A DNA stretch of 63,464 nt from an uncultured Myxococcales bacterium (GCA_964013405.1 CAXGWI010000008.1:1-63464); one strand, 5' to 3'; shown: positions 26,009 to 35,257, counted from the first letter of the stretch. Notes: a model not told the origin generated them from the sequence alone. A program made the numbers and translations.

Positions 26009-26122
26009 AGCGGCTCCCCTCAGCCCGTTCTTACCGGCCCCTGCGGCAAAAATGATCGTCATCCAATTGAAGAGGCAGAAACCCGATCGACAGATCGCCT
26101 AGAATGGAGTCCCAATACCCAT

Positions 26123-26151
26123 TTGCACATTTGCGCAAATATGCATAAGGT
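26123..26151 (+). promoter_or_regulatory. Promoter with embedded palindromic operator (probable ArsR autoregulation site)
   Basis: TTGCAC-N17-TAAGGT, 7 nt before ATG 26159. The spacer holds the perfect palindrome ATTTGCGCAAAT (26129-26140), extending to TGCACATTTGCGCAAATATGCA (26124-26145, one mismatch). Confidence 0.7.
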
Positions 26152-26158
26152 GCTGTCC

Positions 26159-26467
26159 ATGGATACTGAAACCGTCGAAAACCTGGCTGGACTGCTCAAA
26201 GCCTTGGGAGAGGTCAACAGGCTCTCTTTGGTGTGCAGGCTCTGTGACTGCAACACGCCCCAGAATGCGATGTGCCTGTGCGAGTGCTGCAGTGTGGATG
26301 CGTCAGGCGTATCCAGACATCTCAAACTGCTCTCGAAAGAGGGAATCGTGAGCGTTGAGAAGCGAGGCAGAGAGCGAAGCTATTCGTTAAATAGATCGTA
26401 TGTTGCGAGTCAGTTGAGAGTGCTCGCAGACAAGATTGAATGGACTGAAAATGAGGAGGCATCATGA
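26159..26467 (+). CDS. ArsR/SmtB-family metalloregulator with a 7-Cys cluster
   Basis: LKALGEVNRL, SGVSRHLKLL.KEGIV..EKRGRE..YSL winged HTH; CRLCDC...MCLCECC lies just before the recognition helix. Confidence 0.88.
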   Translation: MDTETVENLAGLLKALGEVNRLSLVCRLCDCNTPQNAMCLCECCSVDASGVSRHLKLLSKEGIVSVEKRGRERSYSLNRSYVASQLRVLADKIEWTENEEAS

Positions 26468-26559
26468 GCGAAGAACCCTGTAAGTGTGACTGTGCTAAAG
26501 ACGATTGCTGTGCGAATCGGACGTGTTCCTGCTGCGAAAAGGCTTGTTGCTGCGACTGA
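26464..26559 (+). CDS. Metallothionein-like peptide (31 aa, 11 Cys)
   Basis: Not in the ORF track. Translates to MSEEPCKCDCAKDDCCANRTCSCCEKACCCD*. ATGA overlap with the arsR stop; GAGGAGG at 26453-26459. Confidence 0.75.
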   Translation: MSEEPCKCDCAKDDCCANRTCSCCEKACCCD

Positions 26560-26611
26560 GCCGGAAGTTCTGACAAACTCTGAGCGTCAGGGTCCGTTCG
26601 ACTCCACCAAA

Positions 26612-27589
26612 CTAGGCTGGAGACGTCTGAGCGGTGGCCTGATGCATGCATGCCTCTAAGCCACTCTGCAGGGCTTCGGCGTCAAGGCCTTTGCCGATGA
26701 AGACAAGTCGGCAAGATCGCTTGTCATCAATCCAGAGGCGGTCTGGCTTCACATCCACAACGTCTCGAACCCCGTTGAAGACAAACGCGCGCGGCTGGTC
26801 CGCAACTGCGATCATGCCCTTCATCCGAAGAACGGCTCCCTCTTGACGGCGAACGAGCCTGCCAAGCCAGAGATCAAGTGCGTCGAGATCAACGTTCCCC
26901 TGAGCCTCAAGGCCCACAGCACGGATCGCCTCATCGTGGACATGGGAATCAGTGGTCATTGTATCCACAGACCCAAGGCCCATGCCACCAGCGGCTCCCC
27001 CCATTTCCAAGACGTCGGAGACATCGACTTGCCCGAACTGGGCTCGAAGAATCCTCGCAAGCGGATTGATCTTTCCAATCTCTATCTCCACCGCCTCGAG
27101 CCCTTGATCGGTCATGCGGTCCATCTTGTTGAGAATAACCATGTCGGCGTAAGTGATCTGTTCGAGGCAGGCATCGACCTCAGTTAACGATCGACTTAAG
27201 TGCTCCGCATCGACCACCGTGACCACACCGTCCAGGACAAAGGGCGCCCTGATCTCGGCTCGATCGAAGAGCCGCATCACGGGTCCTGGCTCGGCCAATC
27301 CCGTGGTTTCGATGATCACATGGTCGAAGTCGGCTCGCCGCTGCGCAATTTGTTGCAGGGCAGCCAAAAGATCAGAGCGAACCGAACAACAAACACAGCC
27401 ACCGTTGAGTTCGAAAAGAGTCTCACTGGGCTGCAGCATCCGCAAACCATCGATGCCCATGCCAGCAAACTCATTCTCGATTACAGCGAATCGGTGACCT
27501 GTTTGGGCCTTCAAGACATGCTCAAGGAGCGTGGTTTTACCAGCCCCAAGAAATCCCGTGATCAGCGTAACGGGGATCGGAGTGCTCAC
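26612..27589 (-). CDS. COG0523/CobW-family G3E GTPase metallochaperone
   Basis: GFLGAGKTT, ENEF, GCVCC, IETTGLAEP, NKMD, CobW_C domain (LRMKG...LVFIG); GGAGG RBS. Confidence 0.93.
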   Translation of the reverse strand: MSTPIPVTLITGFLGAGKTTLLEHVLKAQTGHRFAVIENEFAGMGIDGLRMLQPSETLFELNGGCVCCSVRSDLLAALQQIAQRRADFDHVIIETTGLAEPGPVMRLFDRAEIRAPFVLDGVVTVVDAEHLSRSLTEVDACLEQITYADMVILNKMDRMTDQGLEAVEIEIGKINPLARILRAQFGQVDVSDVLEMGGAAGGMGLGSVDTMTTDSHVHDEAIRAVGLEAQGNVDLDALDLWLGRLVRRQEGAVLRMKGMIAVADQPRAFVFNGVRDVVDVKPDRLWIDDKRSCRLVFIGKGLDAEALQSGLEACMHQATAQTSPA

Positions 27590-27722
27590 TTTTACCCTCC
27601 GTAGGCTCGGATCCTTGGCGACATCTTTAAAACTGGAGCCGCTTCATTCCATTTCCACGCTGCGCTGCCCCAAATACAGGGCCGGTCCGAAGCTGTTCAT
27701 TCCAGTCTTTAATGGAAGGAAA

Positions 27723-28436
27723 TCACCCTGACTGGATCCCGAAATCTGCTTGCTCAGAATCGACAGCCATCGCCTGCTCCACATCATAGCCAGGCTGCTC
27801 TCCCGAGTCACCAGAACGGACAGCTCCCGTCAGGATCGAGATGGGGATGCGCCCTCCATCTCCCCTGAGCAGAGTCGCATCGGGATTCATCGCTTCAATC
27901 GCACGAACCACAGAGGTTTCTACATCCGCATCGAGCGTCGTGGCACCATCCACCCAAACCTTATGAGCCGTGCCCACGCGCTCCATCAGAGTCGCCGCTG
28001 CGTCGCTTCGCAGGGTGTCGAGAAAGCTTGGTCCATCCACCATCGTGACCACCTGCTGAATCTGGGCCACGTCCTCAAGGACCGCGCCTGTGTCATCGGG
28101 CACGGTAAAGGTCTTTGCCAACGAGTCCAAATCGCTCTGAGGAGGTACCTGAATCACCACATGGTCGGCCCGCCCCTCTTCAGCCAGTCGTCTGACCTTG
28201 GTCAGCACATCCCAGCGAACCGTGCAGCAAGAACATCCCTGCCCCAGGCGCTTCAGGCGCTGTGTCGTCGGCAGTAGGGTCAGGCCGGTTCGAGATGCAG
28301 CCCGCTTTGAGGCTTTCCAAGGCGTAATCGCCGCGACTCGAAGCCCCCCGCAATCGTTGGTCAGTCGTTCCAGCAGTCCTGTACCTCGGGTACCAGGAGC
28401 GCCAATAAAGATGGTCACAGAAAGAGGCTTTGTCAT
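27723..28436 (-). CDS. Degenerate COG0523-like protein (GCSCC kept, GTPase motifs eroded, no CobW_C domain)
   Basis: GQGCSCCTVRWD, DHVVI, VVTMVDG and MNPDA align with CobW. Walker A position reads GAPGTRGT; ETTG and NKxD are absent. Confidence 0.7.
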   Translation of the reverse strand: MTKPLSVTIFIGAPGTRGTGLLERLTNDCGGLRVAAITPWKASKRAASRTGLTLLPTTQRLKRLGQGCSCCTVRWDVLTKVRRLAEEGRADHVVIQVPPQSDLDSLAKTFTVPDDTGAVLEDVAQIQQVVTMVDGPSFLDTLRSDAAATLMERVGTAHKVWVDGATTLDADVETSVVRAIEAMNPDATLLRGDGGRIPISILTGAVRSGDSGEQPGYDVEQAMAVDSEQADFGIQSG

Positions 28437-28648
28437 GGGTCTGCTCCGTGAATTCAATCACCCGATTAGCGGGCGACAAAAAGCATTTTTAGCGGTCACG
28501 CTCTCGATGATCCTCAGTGTTTATATATGTTCATAGGACGTTTAAGAAGGCTTGGATTCGCACGAATCATTTCGTGGACTAAAGTGAACGACTTTGGTCA
28601 TGACGAAGGCTTGCCAAAGGCCTGGCGAGCATAAGAGGAGATCCATCC

Positions 28649-29074
28649 ATGTTCAGTTCCATTCTCGATGCCATCATTGGCGGCGCCATCATTGGCCTTG
28701 CCGCCTCGTGGCTCCTGCTGGCGAAAGGACGAGTTGCCGGGATCAGCGGTATCGTCGGGTCCCTCTTGACCCCCTGGAGTGACGACTCCGTATGGCGGCT
28801 GAGCTTCGTCGGCGGTCTGCTTGTTGGCGGCGCGCTTCTCGTCCTCATCTTACCCACCGCAATCGTTGCACCCAGTGGACGGTCACTGGCCTTGCTTGCC
28901 GCCGCCGGCCTCGCCGTCGGCTATGGCACCCAGTTGGGGAGCGGCTGTACCAGCGGTCACGGCATCTGTGGGCTGAGCCGGTTCTCGCCCCGATCCCTCG
29001 TCGCAACGCTCACTTTTATGGCGACGGGTTTCGCCACCGCGACCGTGATCGGTCTGATGGGAGTTGGCTCATGA
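28649..29074 (+). CDS. YeeE/YedE-family sulfur-compound transporter subunit
   Basis: GRVAGISGI and GSGCTSGHGICG..R.SPRS motifs. Confidence 0.9.
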   Translation: MFSSILDAIIGGAIIGLAASWLLLAKGRVAGISGIVGSLLTPWSDDSVWRLSFVGGLLVGGALLVLILPTAIVAPSGRSLALLAAAGLAVGYGTQLGSGCTSGHGICGLSRFSPRSLVATLTFMATGFATATVIGLMGVGS

Positions 29075-29520
29075 ATCGCCCTCTTGCCGCCTTTCTCGGT
29101 GGTGTCATCTTCGCAGTGGGCTTGGGTATCTCGGGGATGACAGACGCCAATAAAGTGATTGGATTTTTGAACCTTGCTGGACCGTGGGATCCAAGCCTGG
29201 CTTTTGTGATGGTCGGCGGGATTGGCGTCCACTTGGCCCTCTACCGACTGATCTTACGCCGTGAAAGCCCACTGTTGAGTACTCGGTTCCACCTACCCAC
29301 CCGCCGGGACATCACCCCTCAGTTGGTGGGAGGAGCGGCCCTCTTTGGTATCGGCTGGGGCGCCGGTGGGTTTTGCCCCGGCCCTGGCATCGTCTCTGTG
29401 GTCGGATTCGGCTCCCCCGCTGTCGTCTTTGTTCTCGCCATGATCGGCGGGATGGGCTTGCATCGATTTCTCCACCCCCCAGTGACGACCACCGCAAATC
29501 CAACGGAGGCACCATCGTAG
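29071..29520 (+). CDS. YeeE/YedE-family partner subunit
   Basis: GLGISGM....KVIGFL....WDPSL.FVM and FGIGWG..GFCPGP; ATGA overlap gives the start at 29071. Confidence 0.9.
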   Translation: MNRPLAAFLGGVIFAVGLGISGMTDANKVIGFLNLAGPWDPSLAFVMVGGIGVHLALYRLILRRESPLLSTRFHLPTRRDITPQLVGGAALFGIGWGAGGFCPGPGIVSVVGFGSPAVVFVLAMIGGMGLHRFLHPPVTTTANPTEAPS

Positions 29521-29848: not shown

Positions 29849-31954
29849 ATGAGCACACTGGTCCAGAACCGCCTTCAAGAAGCTGGCTACGCCCTTGTTT
29901 ATCCCTCGGAAAGAGAGGGCAAGACCCTGTTAGAGATGTTTGGCATCCGGGGGATGATTTACCCTGCGGCGAACAGTCCCGGGAGCGGGGAAAACCCCAG
30001 TAGCTTTATCGGTTCGCTCGGCAATCTTTTCGGTGTCCCCGATGACTTTGTGACCGATCGAACGGTCGGAATATTTGTCAATTGGCCGCTGCAGGCAACC
30101 TCGGCCGTGGACTTTCTCGCACGCAACGGTTCGGCCACTGAGAACAACGCCGACGACTTCTACCGACTGGCGACTTACTTGGCCAAGTTCGAGTCGGCCA
30201 CCATGGATGACGAGGAAGTGGCGGCGCTCCGCAGTTTCCTTGAGGCGGGTATCGGCGCGAGTAATTGGGTGGTCCGGTGTCAGGCAGCCATCGGGCTCGG
30301 ACACCTAGGCGGTGACGAGAGCGCCGCTGCCATGGCCAGTCAGCTTGCGGACGACGACAAGGACGTGGTGGCCGATACCCTTGCAGGGCTCGCCTATTGT
30401 GGTGGAATCAAGGCACTGGCTGCGGACGGCTCCATCGATCGCTATGTGACCGGTGACCACAGCGACTTTGTGGAGCAGGCCTTACCCTATATCTTAGACG
30501 GCGATCTCGACGCTGCCGAGGTCATCAGTGAGTTTGGCGTCAACGATACTCGCTCTGTCCGGTTGCTTGCCGCCGGTGCCACACCCTCCGCAGATTTGTT
30601 CGAGTACTTTACGGACAAACTCGCGAACGAAGATTGGAATTCAACCAAGCACCTGATCGAAGCCCTGCTTCGGTCTGCACCGGCCGATGGGGACGTAGAT
30701 GTCTCCCGATTCTTTGCGATCCTAGATGACGTCTCGGAAGGGGGAAGCACCTATTCACAAACACAGGTCCTGCTCGGCGCGCTGCCCCTATCTCCCGAGG
30801 CCGCCAACGAGGTCGTTCAGGACCTGTTGAGCCGGGACGTGTCTGATGGCGACGCCAAAAAGTCCCGTGCGCTGGCCGTCGGCAAGTTAGCACCCAATGA
30901 ATTCGGCCGCTGCGGCGTGGACGCCCACGAGTTACTGAGCTTCGGCTACAGCCGCATGGAGACCCTCGTCGAAGGCTGGTCCTCCTCGCCAGCCTTCGAC
31001 CTAGTGTATGGCAGCACACCCAACCAGACACAAAGGAACCTGCTCACGTCCTTGCTCGTTTCGAACCAACGGCAGCTGGGGGAGATGAGCGTGCTCGCTG
31101 CCACGATCCTGGCCCGCTATCCAGAGTGCCAACCCTTCATGGAGAAAAAGATCGTCGAAACAAACACCGCGACCGATGTGCGCAGAGCCTGTGCCAGCGC
31201 GCTCATCGCAAGCGATACCGAGACGGTTGTGCCCACCGCATTGCTGCGCACGCTGTTGTCGACCAAAGGCGGTCCCTTGGCACCGTCACCGGAAAACTTC
31301 GGCCTGCTCCTGGCCCAACTCGGCGACTACGACTGCAATGAACATGCTGCGCAGTTGCTGAGTACGGCCACCCCAGAACAACGGAGGGCAGTCCGCGCCT
31401 TCGTCGATTTCAAGCGGTCGCTGGGAGAATCCAACGCGGGTCTCATCGCGGCTGGCTTGCACGTTGGCGGCAAGCCGGTCAGCTACTTCGACTCGTCTCA
31501 GGTCAATCGGGCGGTCAATGAGAACACATTGCTGGCCTTGAAATGGGAAGAGGACGTGCCGGCTGGTCGGCTTGCGGGCCTCCTGAACCAAGAGGATTCA
31601 GCCCTCGATATCTTCCAATCGGCCTTGGTTGAAGGCAACGACCGGGAAGATATGGAAGCCCTTGCGCGGGCAGCGGGCGACTCCACCATTTTGACAGATG
31701 AAGACCTGGCGAATGGTGTCCTGGCTCTGGGTCGAAAGAGCGGCTGGGTTGCGAAGGAGGCTGCTGGCCGCTTGGCAAAGGCAGCGGGCGAACGACTCAC
31801 CGAAACGCCGCAGTTTGACGATGTTGCCAGCTTGTTGATCGAGTTGACACAAGACAGCGACACCGACGTCGAGCGCGACAGCAAAGCAGCCTGCGCTGTC
31901 TTGGGGATCGAGTGGGATTCCGAGTCCGACGAAATAGAGAACGAGGATGGCTAG
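29849..31954 (+). CDS. Acidic alpha-helical HEAT-repeat protein
   Basis: WVVRCQAAIGLGHLG, LADDDKDV, DVRRACASAL, LTQDSDTDVER HEAT-like units; AAGGAG RBS. Confidence 0.65.
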   Translation: MSTLVQNRLQEAGYALVYPSEREGKTLLEMFGIRGMIYPAANSPGSGENPSSFIGSLGNLFGVPDDFVTDRTVGIFVNWPLQATSAVDFLARNGSATENNADDFYRLATYLAKFESATMDDEEVAALRSFLEAGIGASNWVVRCQAAIGLGHLGGDESAAAMASQLADDDKDVVADTLAGLAYCGGIKALAADGSIDRYVTGDHSDFVEQALPYILDGDLDAAEVISEFGVNDTRSVRLLAAGATPSADLFEYFTDKLANEDWNSTKHLIEALLRSAPADGDVDVSRFFAILDDVSEGGSTYSQTQVLLGALPLSPEAANEVVQDLLSRDVSDGDAKKSRALAVGKLAPNEFGRCGVDAHELLSFGYSRMETLVEGWSSSPAFDLVYGSTPNQTQRNLLTSLLVSNQRQLGEMSVLAATILARYPECQPFMEKKIVETNTATDVRRACASALIASDTETVVPTALLRTLLSTKGGPLAPSPENFGLLLAQLGDYDCNEHAAQLLSTATPEQRRAVRAFVDFKRSLGESNAGLIAAGLHVGGKPVSYFDSSQVNRAVNENTLLALKWEEDVPAGRLAGLLNQEDSALDIFQSALVEGNDREDMEALARAAGDSTILTDEDLANGVLALGRKSGWVAKEAAGRLAKAAGERLTETPQFDDVASLLIELTQDSDTDVERDSKAACAVLGIEWDSESDEIENEDG

Positions 31955-31994
31955 AACAGTGGCCGACGGATGGCTTGAAGCAAGCTAGAGGAGT

Positions 31995-33539
31995 GTGATG
32001 ATGGAAACAGAGACAGTAGAGAGCAGCGGAACGGTGACCTTGCGAGGTCGGTGGAAGGACAAACCAGGCGTCGTCGAGCGTCTCGAAGAGGCTGGTATCA
32101 CCATCGTCAAAAGTGCGTCTTCGGCCGATGTCTTTTTGGTCGAAGGCACGCCGGCTCAATACATCGTCAACCAAGCTCGGCGAGCCAACAAGGAAGTCCT
32201 CGACATCGAGGTCTACCTCGCCGGTCTATCGGTCCTAGAGAATGCCCAGGCTGCGCCGATGGTGGACTTCCCACGCCGGTCGGCCATCGAAGTCGGCGAT
32301 GGTTGGGTGCGCATCTTGGACATCACACTGGCACGGAACAACGATCCGGGCCCGCTCTGCCCTCCGGCCTCGAGATTCGCTTCATTTACCTTCGACAGCC
32401 CCACCCTGCTCGCAGCCCGAACGATTGCTTTGGGTGTGCGCTATGGCTTGCCGGTGCTGCTCGAAGGAGAGACAGCGACGGCGAAGACATCGGCCATTCG
32501 CTGGGTCGCCCATCTGACCGGCAACCAGCTCACGCGCATCAACCTCAATGGTCAAACCGACACCTCGGAGTTGGTGGGGCGTTATGTTCCCTCTGGTGGA
32601 CTGCCGGAGATCGATATCTGGGCTTATAAGGCCTTCATCGAAGAAAACGCCGACGATTCCGGTGTGAACCTCAGTCCAGAGACCGAGGCATTGATCCTGA
32701 AGGCCTGCGCTGCCAACGAGGGCCGAGGCCGCCCGCTGACCCAAGTAGAGGTCCAGCAGATCATGGCCAATGAGACACTGCAGCAGCCCCAGTGGGGCTT
32801 CTTGGAGGGGGCCGTACCACGGGCTCTACGGGAGGGCCATTGGGTCATTCTTGACGAGGTCAACCTGGCCGAAGCCCAGGTCCTCGAACGGCTAAACCCC
32901 GTCCTTGAGAACCCCCCGACGATGGTGCTCACCGAAGGTCACGGCACTCGCTTCGGGGGCGGGGGCGGTGTGCCCGTCCATGGGGACTTCCGCATGTTCG
33001 CAACCATGAACCCAGCCTCCTACGCTGGGCGTACCGCACTGTCTCCGGCCTATCGTGATCGCTGGCGCCTCTCCAGCTTCCTCACCTCTCCAGGGGAGCG
33101 GGAGATGCACCAAATGCTGCGGCGGCTCGTCTTTGGCGAGCAGCCGGAGGTGATCTGGCGCGGTGTCGTCTATCAAGCGGATGCGGGCGAATCCCTCTAT
33201 CCGGAACTCAAGGAAGTGGAAGGGATCGACGAACTCCTGCGGAACTTGTCCGTGTTTCATGCCTCGGTGTGCGCTGCAGCCGGTTCAGGGGGTAGTGCCT
33301 CGATCGGTCGGACCCGTCGGGAACGCTACACCTTCACCCGCCGAACCATGCTTGCGGCGATGGATTTGTTAGGCCGGCTGACGACCGAGCCCGAGAAGCC
33401 GGTCACCGGGGCGGCCGACGTGGCGACCATCATCGAAGATATTCTTGAGGCACTCTACGTGTCGCGCTTGCAGGACCAGGCCGACCAGCAGTCCGTCCGG
33501 ACCGCCATGCGCGCAGCCGGGCTGGCGCAAGAGCGGTGA
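31995..33539 (+). CDS. MoxR/midasin-like AAA+ ATPase with N-terminal BRCT-like domain
   Basis: LLEGETATAKT (Walker A), RINLNGQTD, GHWVILDEVNLA (Walker B), FATMNP (sensor 1), LSPAYRDRW (R finger). Start may be ATG 31998 or 32001. Confidence 0.85.
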   Translation: MMMETETVESSGTVTLRGRWKDKPGVVERLEEAGITIVKSASSADVFLVEGTPAQYIVNQARRANKEVLDIEVYLAGLSVLENAQAAPMVDFPRRSAIEVGDGWVRILDITLARNNDPGPLCPPASRFASFTFDSPTLLAARTIALGVRYGLPVLLEGETATAKTSAIRWVAHLTGNQLTRINLNGQTDTSELVGRYVPSGGLPEIDIWAYKAFIEENADDSGVNLSPETEALILKACAANEGRGRPLTQVEVQQIMANETLQQPQWGFLEGAVPRALREGHWVILDEVNLAEAQVLERLNPVLENPPTMVLTEGHGTRFGGGGGVPVHGDFRMFATMNPASYAGRTALSPAYRDRWRLSSFLTSPGEREMHQMLRRLVFGEQPEVIWRGVVYQADAGESLYPELKEVEGIDELLRNLSVFHASVCAAAGSGGSASIGRTRRERYTFTRRTMLAAMDLLGRLTTEPEKPVTGAADVATIIEDILEALYVSRLQDQADQQSVRTAMRAAGLAQER

Positions 33540-35257
33540 GCGATCCCTCCATTCCGGTGAATGAGGACGGTCTGCCGGAGCGTACACAAGTCCATGAGCT
33601 CATGGATGAACTGGACGATTTAGTCTGCATGCTCTCCATGCGGGACGAATTGGTGCTGCAGGCAGGCCCCCCGGGCTCCGGGTGGTTCTTCCAACCGGCG
33701 ACGCGCATCGTGAACGCCGACCGGGGCGACCTGGAAACCCGCGAGCCAGACTTCTGTCGTGGCCTCATCACCCACGAGGCTGCCCATGCCGCGGTGACCC
33801 GTTACTTCGATATGATCCCGAGACGGTTGTTTGAGGGGCCGCACCTGCCCACCTTGCTCAACGTCATCGAGGACTGTCGCATCGAAGAATGGTTGCAGCG
33901 CCGCCTCCCCGGCTGCAAGCCGATGGTGGAGCTCTACAACAACATCCTGTTCGCGCCCTTGCTTGAGCCGGACCAACTTCCCTCATCGGCCTGTGGCCAG
34001 TTCTGCATGTCGATCCTGGGCCGCTGGTGGTACGGCGATTTCCCTGAGGGGGTTGAACCCGTCGTCGAGGATGCGCTCGAAGAGGCTTGGCCCGAGATCA
34101 GCAAAGCCATCGCCCTCCAACCCCCAGCGGTCTTCGTCGACGCAGAGCCGGTCCGGGCGCTCTACCTACGGCACCCTGTCTCCCGGGTTTACCTCACCAA
34201 GGATTTTGGCAACTCCCCCACCGGCATCGAAATGATGGTGCGCATGTACCAGTACAATATGTGGGGCCAGGTCTATCAACAGGTCCTGCCGGTCTTTCAG
34301 CGCCTCCAAGAGCATGACCGTAAGCAAATGGGCGAGAAGGCAAACCAAGACCTTGCCCAACTGCTCTCCCAGATCCGTCCCGTGCCAGATCCCAATTCGC
34401 TGCCGCAGACCGGCGGTGGTCGCCAGGTCATGGGAGCCCCAGCGTGGAGCCAAGCGGCGGGTCCAGGCCCCGGGGGTGCGGCAGGCTTGTCTGCAGCCAT
34501 TGCCAGCGCACTCGCCGCTGACCCCCACGATAAGTACCTCCAGACCTGGCAGAGTCTTTCAAGTCTGATCGATCAACTCGCCCAGGACCTCATCCGCTTG
34601 TTCGAGGCCACCCTGCGGTCAAAATGGTTGCGTTTCCAATCCAGTGGCACACGGCTCGATGTCCGCACTGTGATGCAGTTTGAAGCCGACAAACGCTTGT
34701 ATGACCGGATTTGGCGACGGCGCACCGTGCCCAAACGGATCGATCCAGCCTTCATCCTGTTGATGGATGTGTCTGGCTCCATGGGGGGAGACCCCATCGA
34801 GCACGCCTTCGAAGGTGTCGTGCTGATGACCGAGGTCTGTGCGCGACTCGGGATCCCCGTCGATATCTGGACCTTTGGCAACAAAGCCCAGCACCTGCAC
34901 AGTTGGGAGACCCCCATCAGCGCCGAGACCCGGGCAACCCTGGGGCGAGTGGTGCAGCAATGCGGTGGCGGTACCGACATGGCCGGTGGGATCGAGGCTG
35001 TCACCGATGCCCTGGGGGAACTCCCCCACAAGGACAAGGTCTGCTTCGTTCTTGGCGATGGTGAACCAAACGACGAACGTGCGACCCGCAAAGCGGTCCG
35101 AGTCCTTGAGAATCAGGACTGCACGGTCCTGGGTTTAGGCATCGGAAACTCAACGGAGAATCTGGGCCGGTTCTTCAACGACGGCCTCTACAATGTGCCC
35201 GTGGAGCGCATCGCCACGTCGCTGGCCCGCATGCTCCGCAAATACTTTCTCAACTGA
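33536..35257 (+). CDS. vWA-domain protein with N-terminal HExxH region (CobT/NorD-like MoxR partner)
   Basis: HEAAH and NVIEDCRIE; MIDAS DVSGSM, GGGT, LGDGEP; GTGA overlap with the AAA gene. Confidence 0.85.
   Translation: MSDPSIPVNEDGLPERTQVHELMDELDDLVCMLSMRDELVLQAGPPGSGWFFQPATRIVNADRGDLETREPDFCRGLITHEAAHAAVTRYFDMIPRRLFEGPHLPTLLNVIEDCRIEEWLQRRLPGCKPMVELYNNILFAPLLEPDQLPSSACGQFCMSILGRWWYGDFPEGVEPVVEDALEEAWPEISKAIALQPPAVFVDAEPVRALYLRHPVSRVYLTKDFGNSPTGIEMMVRMYQYNMWGQVYQQVLPVFQRLQEHDRKQMGEKANQDLAQLLSQIRPVPDPNSLPQTGGGRQVMGAPAWSQAAGPGPGGAAGLSAAIASALAADPHDKYLQTWQSLSSLIDQLAQDLIRLFEATLRSKWLRFQSSGTRLDVRTVMQFEADKRLYDRIWRRRTVPKRIDPAFILLMDVSGSMGGDPIEHAFEGVVLMTEVCARLGIPVDIWTFGNKAQHLHSWETPISAETRATLGRVVQQCGGGTDMAGGIEAVTDALGELPHKDKVCFVLGDGEPNDERATRKAVRVLENQDCTVLGLGIGNSTENLGRFFNDGLYNVPVERIATSLARMLRKYFLN

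Follow-up and report, generated by a model that had tools for sequence, protein, structure and literature searches.

Does a run of six genes whose products all carry cysteine (Cys) motifs form one integrated system for metal and thiol homeostasis? The question is raised by positions 26,123 to 29,520 of a 63,464-nt stretch of DNA from an uncultured Myxococcales bacterium (hereafter the window; positions given without a prefix are counted along its whole length, and its own 3.9-Mb genome is called G000). Here, a gene for an ArsR/SmtB-family repressor (arsR) and a gene for a small Cys-rich peptide (mt) converge on two COG0523 genes (cobW1 and cobW2), which are divergent from a yeeE/yedE pair. The first-pass annotation had read these six genes as a sensor, a store, a delivery chaperone and a sulfur supply in a single module. 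We confirmed the six open reading frames (ORFs) in place and orientation, and the Cys motifs quoted for the six products are all found. Nonetheless, this common property is little indication of a common module: CxCC is the invariant motif of COG0523 proteins (PMC11052692) and one conserved Cys per half is standard in YedE1/YedE2 (PMC10812762), so that the motifs of cobW1, YeeE and YedE are those expected of their families.

The conserved unit of the locus consists of two genes, arsR and the gene for a peptide of 31 amino acids (aa). The cassette, the COG0523 pair and yeeE/yedE occur together in none of 86 loci and in none of five related genomes. With synteny of the three parts not conserved and no operator shared between them, the six-gene integrated module is rejected. 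What survives of it is the tight pairing of sensor and store and a looser association with COG0523 genes, the commonest neighbours of the cassette, while the sulfur transporter drops out.

A two-gene cassette of repressor and cysteine-rich peptide

The search for ArsR homologues returned 751 proteins, the best 120 of which all show at least 74% identity. Alignment-based scans gave 33 genome loci and 75 metagenome loci, 108 altogether; 105 are at least 60% identical to the window ArsR and 100 have at least 150 nt of downstream sequence. A small Cys-rich ORF is found behind arsR in all 100 of these close loci, compared to none of three distant ArsRs. Among the 100, an in-frame stop marks L150 as a decayed copy, and L071 has a shortened peptide. 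The 100 loci encode 86 distinct peptides, 78 of them with the exact pattern CxCxC-x4-CC-x4-CxCC-x3-CCC. Since loci overlap between collections and with relatives, these counts are not independent.

Among 401 genomes of the window's phylum, ArsR is present in six and the peptide in the same six (five detected by a hidden Markov model, HMM, and G060 by pattern). According to record titles, carriers belong to four phyla (Myxococcota, Cyanobacteriota, Pseudomonadota and Bdellovibrionota), and a RefSeq cyanobacterial genome carries the cassette as well (L064). In the ArsR tree, most forks of which are poorly resolved, a 98/98 branch unites the cyanobacterial with the gammaproteobacterial rows, a hint of transfer. 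A plasmid collection gave no ArsR match at 1e-10.

The repressor gene (26159..26467, plus strand) encodes 102 aa and scores 55.3 bits against the NF033788 cut-off of 55; its 16 matches to solved proteins are all ArsR-type by name, the nearest being the Cd/Zn sensors CadC and CzrA. We place its start at ATG 26159, which is more likely than the TTG at 26123 named by the first-pass annotation because 26123 falls within the operator. The distance from operator centre to homologous arsR starts, 21-25 nt in 84 of 98 loci, supports this choice.

That operator is a 28-nt palindrome upstream of arsR (26121..26148, no strand assigned; family consensus ATTTGCATATTTGC|GCAAATATGCAAAT) which overlaps the putative -35/-10 region. 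Its 12-nt core is found within two mismatches in 84 of the 100 loci. Using a matrix built from 78 sites, with a short prefilter on the core for the genome scan, we found the operator once in G000, upstream of arsR, with a score of 43. The best scores are -17 before cobW1 and -6.9 between cobW2 and yeeE. Across the 86 loci, just two sites outside the arsR promoter exceed 18 bits, one in L102 and one ahead of the detached peptide gene of L153. Single in the genome and almost confined to the arsR promoter in these loci, the operator points to a regulon that likely comprises just arsR and mt. The -35/-10 reading is weak here (6 of 12 matches; 8 of 12 are reached in 33 of 82 loci), and a promoter and terminator scan gave nothing above chance. 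We also observed two variant arrangements: in L153:326-513 the peptide gene lies 246 nt apart from arsR with its own operator copy, and five loci (L098, L102, L104, L110 and L119) carry two tandem copies upstream of arsR, 24-33 nt apart.

The putative sensory site of this repressor is unlike the characterised types. Six Cys residues (C29, C31, C39, C41, C43 and C44, or CxC-x7-CxCxCC) are kept in 188-191 of 191 aligned sequences, with C26 variable. The alpha5 zinc site DxHx10Hx2(H/E) of SmtB and CzrA is found in none of 195 ArsR sequences, and a Cys after the recognition helix in just three, which sets the family apart from the alpha2/alpha5 pair of SqrR/BigR. Accordingly, the six-Cys set fits none of the alpha5, alpha3N and alpha2/alpha5 types (PMC11672702). 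CadC and AztR, alpha3N sensors of Cd, Pb and Zn, are the best solved-sequence matches (E 3e-9 to 1e-7) and also have Cys at or near helix alpha3. However, the window ArsR lacks their N-terminal Cys pair, carries its Cys set within one subunit and would regulate a peptide gene rather than a P-type ATPase. The AlphaFold2 model, with a predicted TM-score (pTM) of 0.50, a local confidence (pLDDT) below 50 in the Cys region and no Foldseek match at E 0.001 or better, is too poor to place the site.

The second gene, mt (26464..26559, plus strand), overlaps the arsR stop by 4 nt and is translationally coupled to it, with a GAGGAGG ribosome-binding site at 26453-26459. It encodes a metallothionein-like peptide of 31 aa with 11 Cys and no His (MSEEPCKCDCAKDDCCANRTCSCCEKACCCD). 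A ribosome-binding site precedes the peptide gene in 84 of 86 loci and the 4-nt overlap recurs in 55. Two ORFs of the whole 3.9-Mb genome passed a Cys-rich filter, and mt alone has its Cys pattern. Cys codons differ solely at the third base across 78 peptides, and comparison with the G001 counterpart gives nonsynonymous and synonymous divergences (dN and dS) of 0.31 and 1.5, for a ratio of about 0.2. The conserved pattern, codon constraint, dN/dS and ribosome-binding site rule out a chance ORF. RNA-library contigs from four runs (two studies) cover arsR-mt, one beginning at 26161 and one stopping at 26561; such contigs show presence in RNA libraries and give neither strand nor level, and their cover of the surrounding 20 kb is patchy. 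There is no such cover for cobW2, yeeE and yedE, although uncovered parts prove nothing.

In composition the peptides resemble metallothioneins: they are small, with about one-third Cys in CxC and CC motifs and almost no aromatics. As a functional class, metallothioneins are also defined by clusters of several d10 ions with thiolates, by induction with metals and by the tolerance that they provide. Over 86 peptides, Cys makes up 34.5% of residues, the rest being mainly K, E, T, D and S; aromatic residues occur in three peptides and His in two. The core of 78 peptides contains no His and no Tyr, and thus neither the zinc-finger His ligands nor the conserved Tyr of BmtA. When 53 peptides were searched at E up to 1, no metallothionein model of Pfam or NCBIfam matched (Pfam gave the unrelated PF05624 only), nor did any metallothionein structure in the PDB, where two matches at E about 1 are due to chance. 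An Atlas search gave weak leads at 0.79-0.82; the best named one, a ciliate-type metallothionein at 0.79, is a lead only. Taken together, this is likely a new metal-storing peptide outside BmtA, as far as composition and pattern can tell.

Gene callers mostly overlook the peptide gene: none of 10 peptides looked up in a collection of 15 billion proteins is present, and the HMM search of 1.84 billion representatives returned four family members, none of them named. We found no account of this peptide family in the published literature, which does not prove its absence from print, and five short core motifs are absent from four supplementary files of PMC11705764. A secreted disulfide peptide or a precursor of a RiPP (a peptide made by the ribosome and modified after translation) was also considered and rejected: there is no signal or leader, no hydrophobic core and no recurrent modifying enzyme among the scanned neighbours. 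At L165:1800, the N-terminal CxC repeat is expanded to give a peptide with 15 Cys, which suggests modular growth of the sequence.

The cassette represents a novel form of SmtB-SmtA system. Like SmtB-SmtA of Synechococcus PCC 7942 and BmtA under AzuR, BxmR or Zur, it combines an ArsR-family repressor, a small Cys-rich peptide and an inverted repeat in the promoter (PMC8790569, PMC3323870). In contrast to SmtA and BmtA, however, the peptide is 31 aa long and all-Cys, lacks the His and Tyr of the zinc finger, ends in CCC and matches no metallothionein model of Pfam or NCBIfam. The repressor differs from SmtB in the missing alpha5 site, and the arrangement differs as well: the genes are in tandem and usually overlap, and the operator has no spacer and another sequence.

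The COG0523 pair and the sulfur transporter

Next to the cassette, COG0523 genes form the largest cluster among 469 neighbouring ORFs in the 86 loci. They are found in 17 of the 86 loci, which are related to one another, and in 12 of the 38 with at least 6 kb of flank, compared to 0.16-0.63 loci expected by chance if each 3.9-6 Mb genome holds two to five such genes. Their orientations differ, they trace to four or more branches of the family tree, and Myxococcota-type as well as cyanobacterial loci have them, a pattern in favour of repeated clustering. The link is real but loose. For the first-pass annotation, such a combination was not known to be described; a SmtB and BmtA with a nearby COG0523 gene on Acaryochloris plasmids is already in print (PMC3323870, section 10).

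Other recurrent neighbours in the 86 loci are ZnuA/AztC-like (10), HupE/UreJ_2 (5), MerC-like (5), WD40 (5) and CDF (3) proteins, together with a flavoprotein (11) that is often accompanied by a FeoB-like gene (5). Of the 86 loci, 27 have one or more genes from the COG0523, ZnuA, ZnuB, HupE, MerC or CDF classes, as do 16 of the 38 with at least 6 kb of flank. For Pfam annotation, 165 of the 469 ORFs were scanned, covering most shared clusters by representatives, plus the closest singletons. In one lineage only, a FieF-like CDF gene lies 191 nt behind the peptide gene on the same strand (L086:2398-3312, and likewise in G001).

In the window, cobW1 (26612..27589, minus strand; PF02492 E 3e-54, PF07683 E 5e-22) encodes a canonical COG0523 GTPase, with GFLGAGKT, GCVCC, ETTG, NKMD and the CobW_C domain all present. 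Despite these features it falls below both the CobW and the ZigA equivalog cut-offs. A separate ZigA-type gene with intact motifs is found on contig C42 of G000. Though a frequent neighbour, cobW1 is judged to lie outside the ArsR regulon. In G001 the gene order is merC-like, cobW2 and cobW1 facing CDF, mt and arsR; in G005 cobW1 is missing at this place, and in G003 the two COG0523 genes lie on different contigs and the cassette gave no match. G002 holds an in-frame remnant of cobW1 of about 105 aa (L018:2480-2840) with two large internal deletions and GCVCC kept, reflecting either decay or a mini Cys-motif protein.

The adjacent gene, cobW2 (27723..28436, minus strand), gives a weak CobW domain match only. 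Walker A, G2, G3 and G4 are replaced and the CobW_C domain is missing, while GCSCC is kept. In a clade of 14 clusters GCSCC is invariant (14 of 14), and the GTPase motifs GxxGxGKT, ExxG and NKxD are replaced in the 13 fully aligned members and in five family genomes. Two members, P0012 and P0014, are full-length pseudo-GTPases of 371-372 aa that retain the C-terminal domain; this gives a series from ZigA-type protein to full-length dead enzyme to shortened form. Among the 401 phylum genomes, cobW2 is found in five, all of one family, and six weaker matches are canonical ZigA-type genes. The AlphaFold2 model (pTM 0.75) has the G3E fold, with the COG0523 GTPase YjiA as best Foldseek match (E 5e-9).

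The first-pass annotation regarded cobW2 as a degenerate paralogue of its neighbour. This does not hold, since three pairs give dN/dS of 0.11-0.19, indicating purifying selection, and the protein groups with ZigA-type proteins in a careful tree. A clade of cobW2 with cobW1 is rejected in a quick tree (approximately unbiased, AU, test, p 0.0067; 28 rows, after 13 duplicate, partial or redundant rows were dropped). A pseudogene and a tandem duplicate of cobW1 are both excluded by these values. Judged on sequence and model, cobW2 is a conserved ZigA-type pseudo-GTPase. We found no account of this clade in the published literature, which again is no proof that none is in print.

The closest precedent is mycobacterial Mrf, a Zur-regulated ZigA paralogue without canonical GTPase loops (PMC11052692) that binds zinc via CxxC (PMC7431043). 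Mrf is further marked by a role in ribosome hibernation. Like Mrf, cobW2 is ZigA-type, has lost the G-loops and has kept a Cys motif. However, it scores 31.2 bits against the 375-bit cut-off of NF047431, and so is not Mrf by profile; it has also lost the C-terminal domain, and the loci seen show no ribosomal-protein context. Approximately the mirror image of cobW2 is seen in three cyanobacterial COG0523-like proteins on a long branch, encoded by genes that converge on the peptide gene (L069:1479-2660, L080:5300-6490 and L145:6633-7814, all minus strand): they keep Walker A and show no GCxCC, ExxG or NKxD by pattern.

Control of the COG0523 genes seems to be separate. The proposal of one regulatory unit is not supported, as the ArsR operator is found at arsR only and the merC-like gene that comes before the COG0523 pair in relatives has a box of another, Fur-family-like kind. 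This second palindrome, TTATTGMGAA-N4-TTCKCAATAA, is found in G000 in front of zigA-like, fur and merC-like genes (C42:18798, C155:4765, C155:4814 and C61:7876). Further sites are L018:4340, L021:2181/2716/4613, L017:8888 and L128:1284, and in relatives, sites outside the training set that lie in front of fur, hupE-type and flavoprotein genes score 28-32 bits. The box is absent before cobW2 in the window (4.5 bits). We infer that this set is probably the Zur regulon of the family. The MerC-like membrane protein that heads the COG0523 operon in relatives has a long His-rich insert (L016:10750-11466; G000 C61:7879-8553) and is a candidate zinc-uptake or zinc-binding permease.

The last two genes, yeeE (28649..29074, plus strand; PF04143) and yedE (29071..29520, plus strand; DUF6691, PF20398 E 2e-38), encode the YedE1-like and YedE2-like halves of a split sulfur transporter and are judged to lie outside the conserved unit. 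As in YedE1E2/PmpAB, there are two small adjacent halves with a conserved Cys in each (GCTSGH and FCPGP). Homologues of yeeE/yedE are found in 127 of the 401 phylum genomes. In the 29 closest yeeE loci, considered over 1.5 kb on each side, the usual neighbours are a gene for a metallo-beta-lactamase (MBL)-rhodanese protein, resembling persulfide dioxygenase (22 of 29), and an extracytoplasmic function (ECF) sigma factor (14 of 29); none has cobW or this arsR. The MBL-rhodanese neighbours agree with the published yedE1E2-pdo link, pdo being present in 83.5% of yedE1E2 genomes (PMC10812762). Compared to these systems the pair in the window stands alone: in relatives it comes after ECF-sigma and MBL-rhodanese genes, for which G000 has no orthologue (best 24-28% identity).

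The position of yeeE/yedE is not conserved either. The pair lies beside the cassette in none of the five other cassette genomes; G002, G060 and G112 carry it on a different contig, and with this query we did not find yeeE in the closest relative G001 (93% complete) or in G005 (59%). The interval between cobW2 and a GST gene holds merC-like and amidohydrolase genes in G001 compared to yeeE-yedE-HEAT-AAA-vWA in G000, and so is a variable slot. Adjacent in 1 of 86 loci, yeeE and yedE are most likely chance neighbours, and likely a local insertion, and the claim that they belong to the module is not upheld. The genes after yedE, for HEAT-repeat, MoxR-like AAA and vWA proteins (29849-35257, plus strand), are absent from the matching slot of G001, and RNA contigs from three runs cover parts of 31545-32021. 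A palindrome CACGAA-N4-TTCGTG, with nine such matches in the genome, lies between cobW2 and yeeE.

The probable metal and mechanism

What, then, does the cassette do? The explanation that we favour, with moderate confidence, is a repressor-metallothionein cassette for zinc or cadmium excess that is set within zinc islands and here stands beside a separately controlled COG0523 pair, the sulfur transporter being unrelated. An apo-ArsR dimer would bind the palindrome over its own promoter and repress arsR-mt. A thiophilic metal, Zn or Cd, would fill the alpha2/alpha3 Cys cluster and cause ArsR to leave the DNA. The peptide would then be made, fold around about three to four divalent ions by Cys thiolates only and store the excess; the number is by analogy with metallothionein domains of 9 to 11 Cys. 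The COG0523 pair would ancestrally belong, with the merC-like gene, to a low-zinc regulon under a Fur-family protein, probably Zur. In this scheme cobW1 would be a working zinc chaperone and cobW2, by analogy with Mrf, a GTP-independent zinc-binding or zinc-sensing protein. The cassette and the COG0523 pair would act as zinc buffers from opposite directions, with no need for contact.

Several observations weigh against this explanation. The ArsR site matches no characterised type, having neither the alpha5 motif nor an N-terminal Cys, so that the metal is read from the neighbouring genes. Of these, the COG0523 count (17 of 86) overstates independence because the loci are related, and 59 of the 86 loci, many of them short, lack any of the six zinc-type classes. 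The Fur-family-like box exceeds 16 bits at four places in G000, three of them training sites, compared to eight once the genome is shuffled, and NCBIfam does not give the name Zur to the Fur protein. Genes of other kinds are also found: in one lineage the cassette faces convergent genes for an arsC-like reductase and an aquaporin (L052:6530-8306, minus strand), L131 has an ArsP/SO_0444-type permease, and AhpD/CMD and glyoxalase-fold proteins occur in four and five loci, respectively. Finally, in the unrelated locus L094, yeeE-yedE lies 219 nt behind the peptide gene on the same strand (1 of 86 loci), which leaves a small chance of a real yeeE/yedE link.

Some of these observations would fit the same cassette with another inducer, serving mainly in detoxification of Cu(I), Hg(II), Cd(II) or As(III) with zinc incidental. 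All-thiolate sites favour soft ions, alpha3 Cys sites are known to sense Cd/Pb or As(III) (PMC11672702), and HMMER aligns the CLC of ArsR with the CVC motif of CadC; the peptide is also without the His that biases SmtA to zinc (PMC3323870). To the ars-type neighbours in L052 and L131 can be added an HMA-thioredoxin protein in L119. Nonetheless, zinc-uptake and chaperone genes dominate the neighbours (27 of 86 loci), arsC is confined to its one lineage, and no copA, cadA or merA cluster was found among the 165 of 469 ORFs scanned. We regard this alternative as possible but rather unlikely. Lower still is the probability that we give to a direct coupling of the two halves into one functional system, with the peptide as a zinc reservoir that supplies the COG0523 chaperone or pseudo-GTPase. 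The excess of COG0523 neighbours over expectation, in several arrangements and from several branches and types of locus, is in its favour, as is the proposal that ZigA draws zinc from buffered pools (PMC11052692). Yet 69 of the 86 loci have no COG0523 gene within the flanking DNA examined, no operator is shared, the pairing breaks down among relatives (the cobW1 remnant of G002, its absence at this place in G005, and G003 with no match to the cassette), and clustering of zinc genes explains the link without contact. A complex prediction of cobW1 with three Zn and the peptide scored 0.00, with the controls not folded; it gives no verdict and is evidence for neither side.

A redox or sulfur system is the least probable of the alternatives and very unlikely overall. 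Here, as under the full six-gene model, the Cys cluster would act as a thiol switch responding to H2O2 or persulfide, and YeeE/YedE would feed the peptide, which would buffer sulfane sulfur or serve as an antioxidant buffer. The vicinal pair C43-C44 in the alpha3 region resembles Cys40-Cys41 of RexT, and in ArsRs neighbouring Cys seldom serve as ligands of metals (PMC8960804). Among the ORFs scanned, a neighbouring thioredoxin domain as in RexT-type systems is found in L119 only, and the model of the region is of low confidence. The proximity of yeeE/yedE here and in L094 and the four AhpD/CMD loci also fit such a role. However, known persulfide sensors use an alpha2/alpha5 Cys pair, which the rarity of a late Cys (3 of 195) disfavours; yeeE is adjacent in a single locus and none of the 29 yeeE loci adjoins this arsR or cobW, while G001 has merC-like and amidohydrolase genes in the slot instead.

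A possible role in zinc handling

Beyond the zinc or cadmium cassette, a wider version can be imagined, to which we assign a low probability, between those of another inducer and of the reservoir. Marine bacteria of at least four phyla would share a mobile zinc capacitor, made of the smallest all-Cys bacterial metallothionein and a new six-Cys ArsR switch. The peptide would bank zinc in pulses and release it to COG0523 proteins in scarcity, which would be why the cassette turns up beside their genes again and again, and in this lineage a catalytically dead COG0523 protein with CxCC only would act as a GTP-independent sensor or hand-off partner.

Few bacterial metallothioneins are characterised, namely SmtA/BmtA, MymT and the Pseudomonas types (PMC13578184), and the handling of excess zinc by marine bacteria without SmtB or efflux pumps is described as an open question (PMC3323870). 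What the locus contributes is a regulon test, a COG0523 linkage, a pseudo-GTPase and the exclusion of yeeE/yedE, whose proposed sulfur supply brings little to the original claim. The cassette is a complete testable unit of sensor, operator and store. The predicted pseudo-GTPase cobW2 would be a second example in nature of a COG0523 protein retained only for its Cys motif. Finally, its repeated position beside COG0523 genes makes the peptide a candidate for the missing zinc source of these chaperones.

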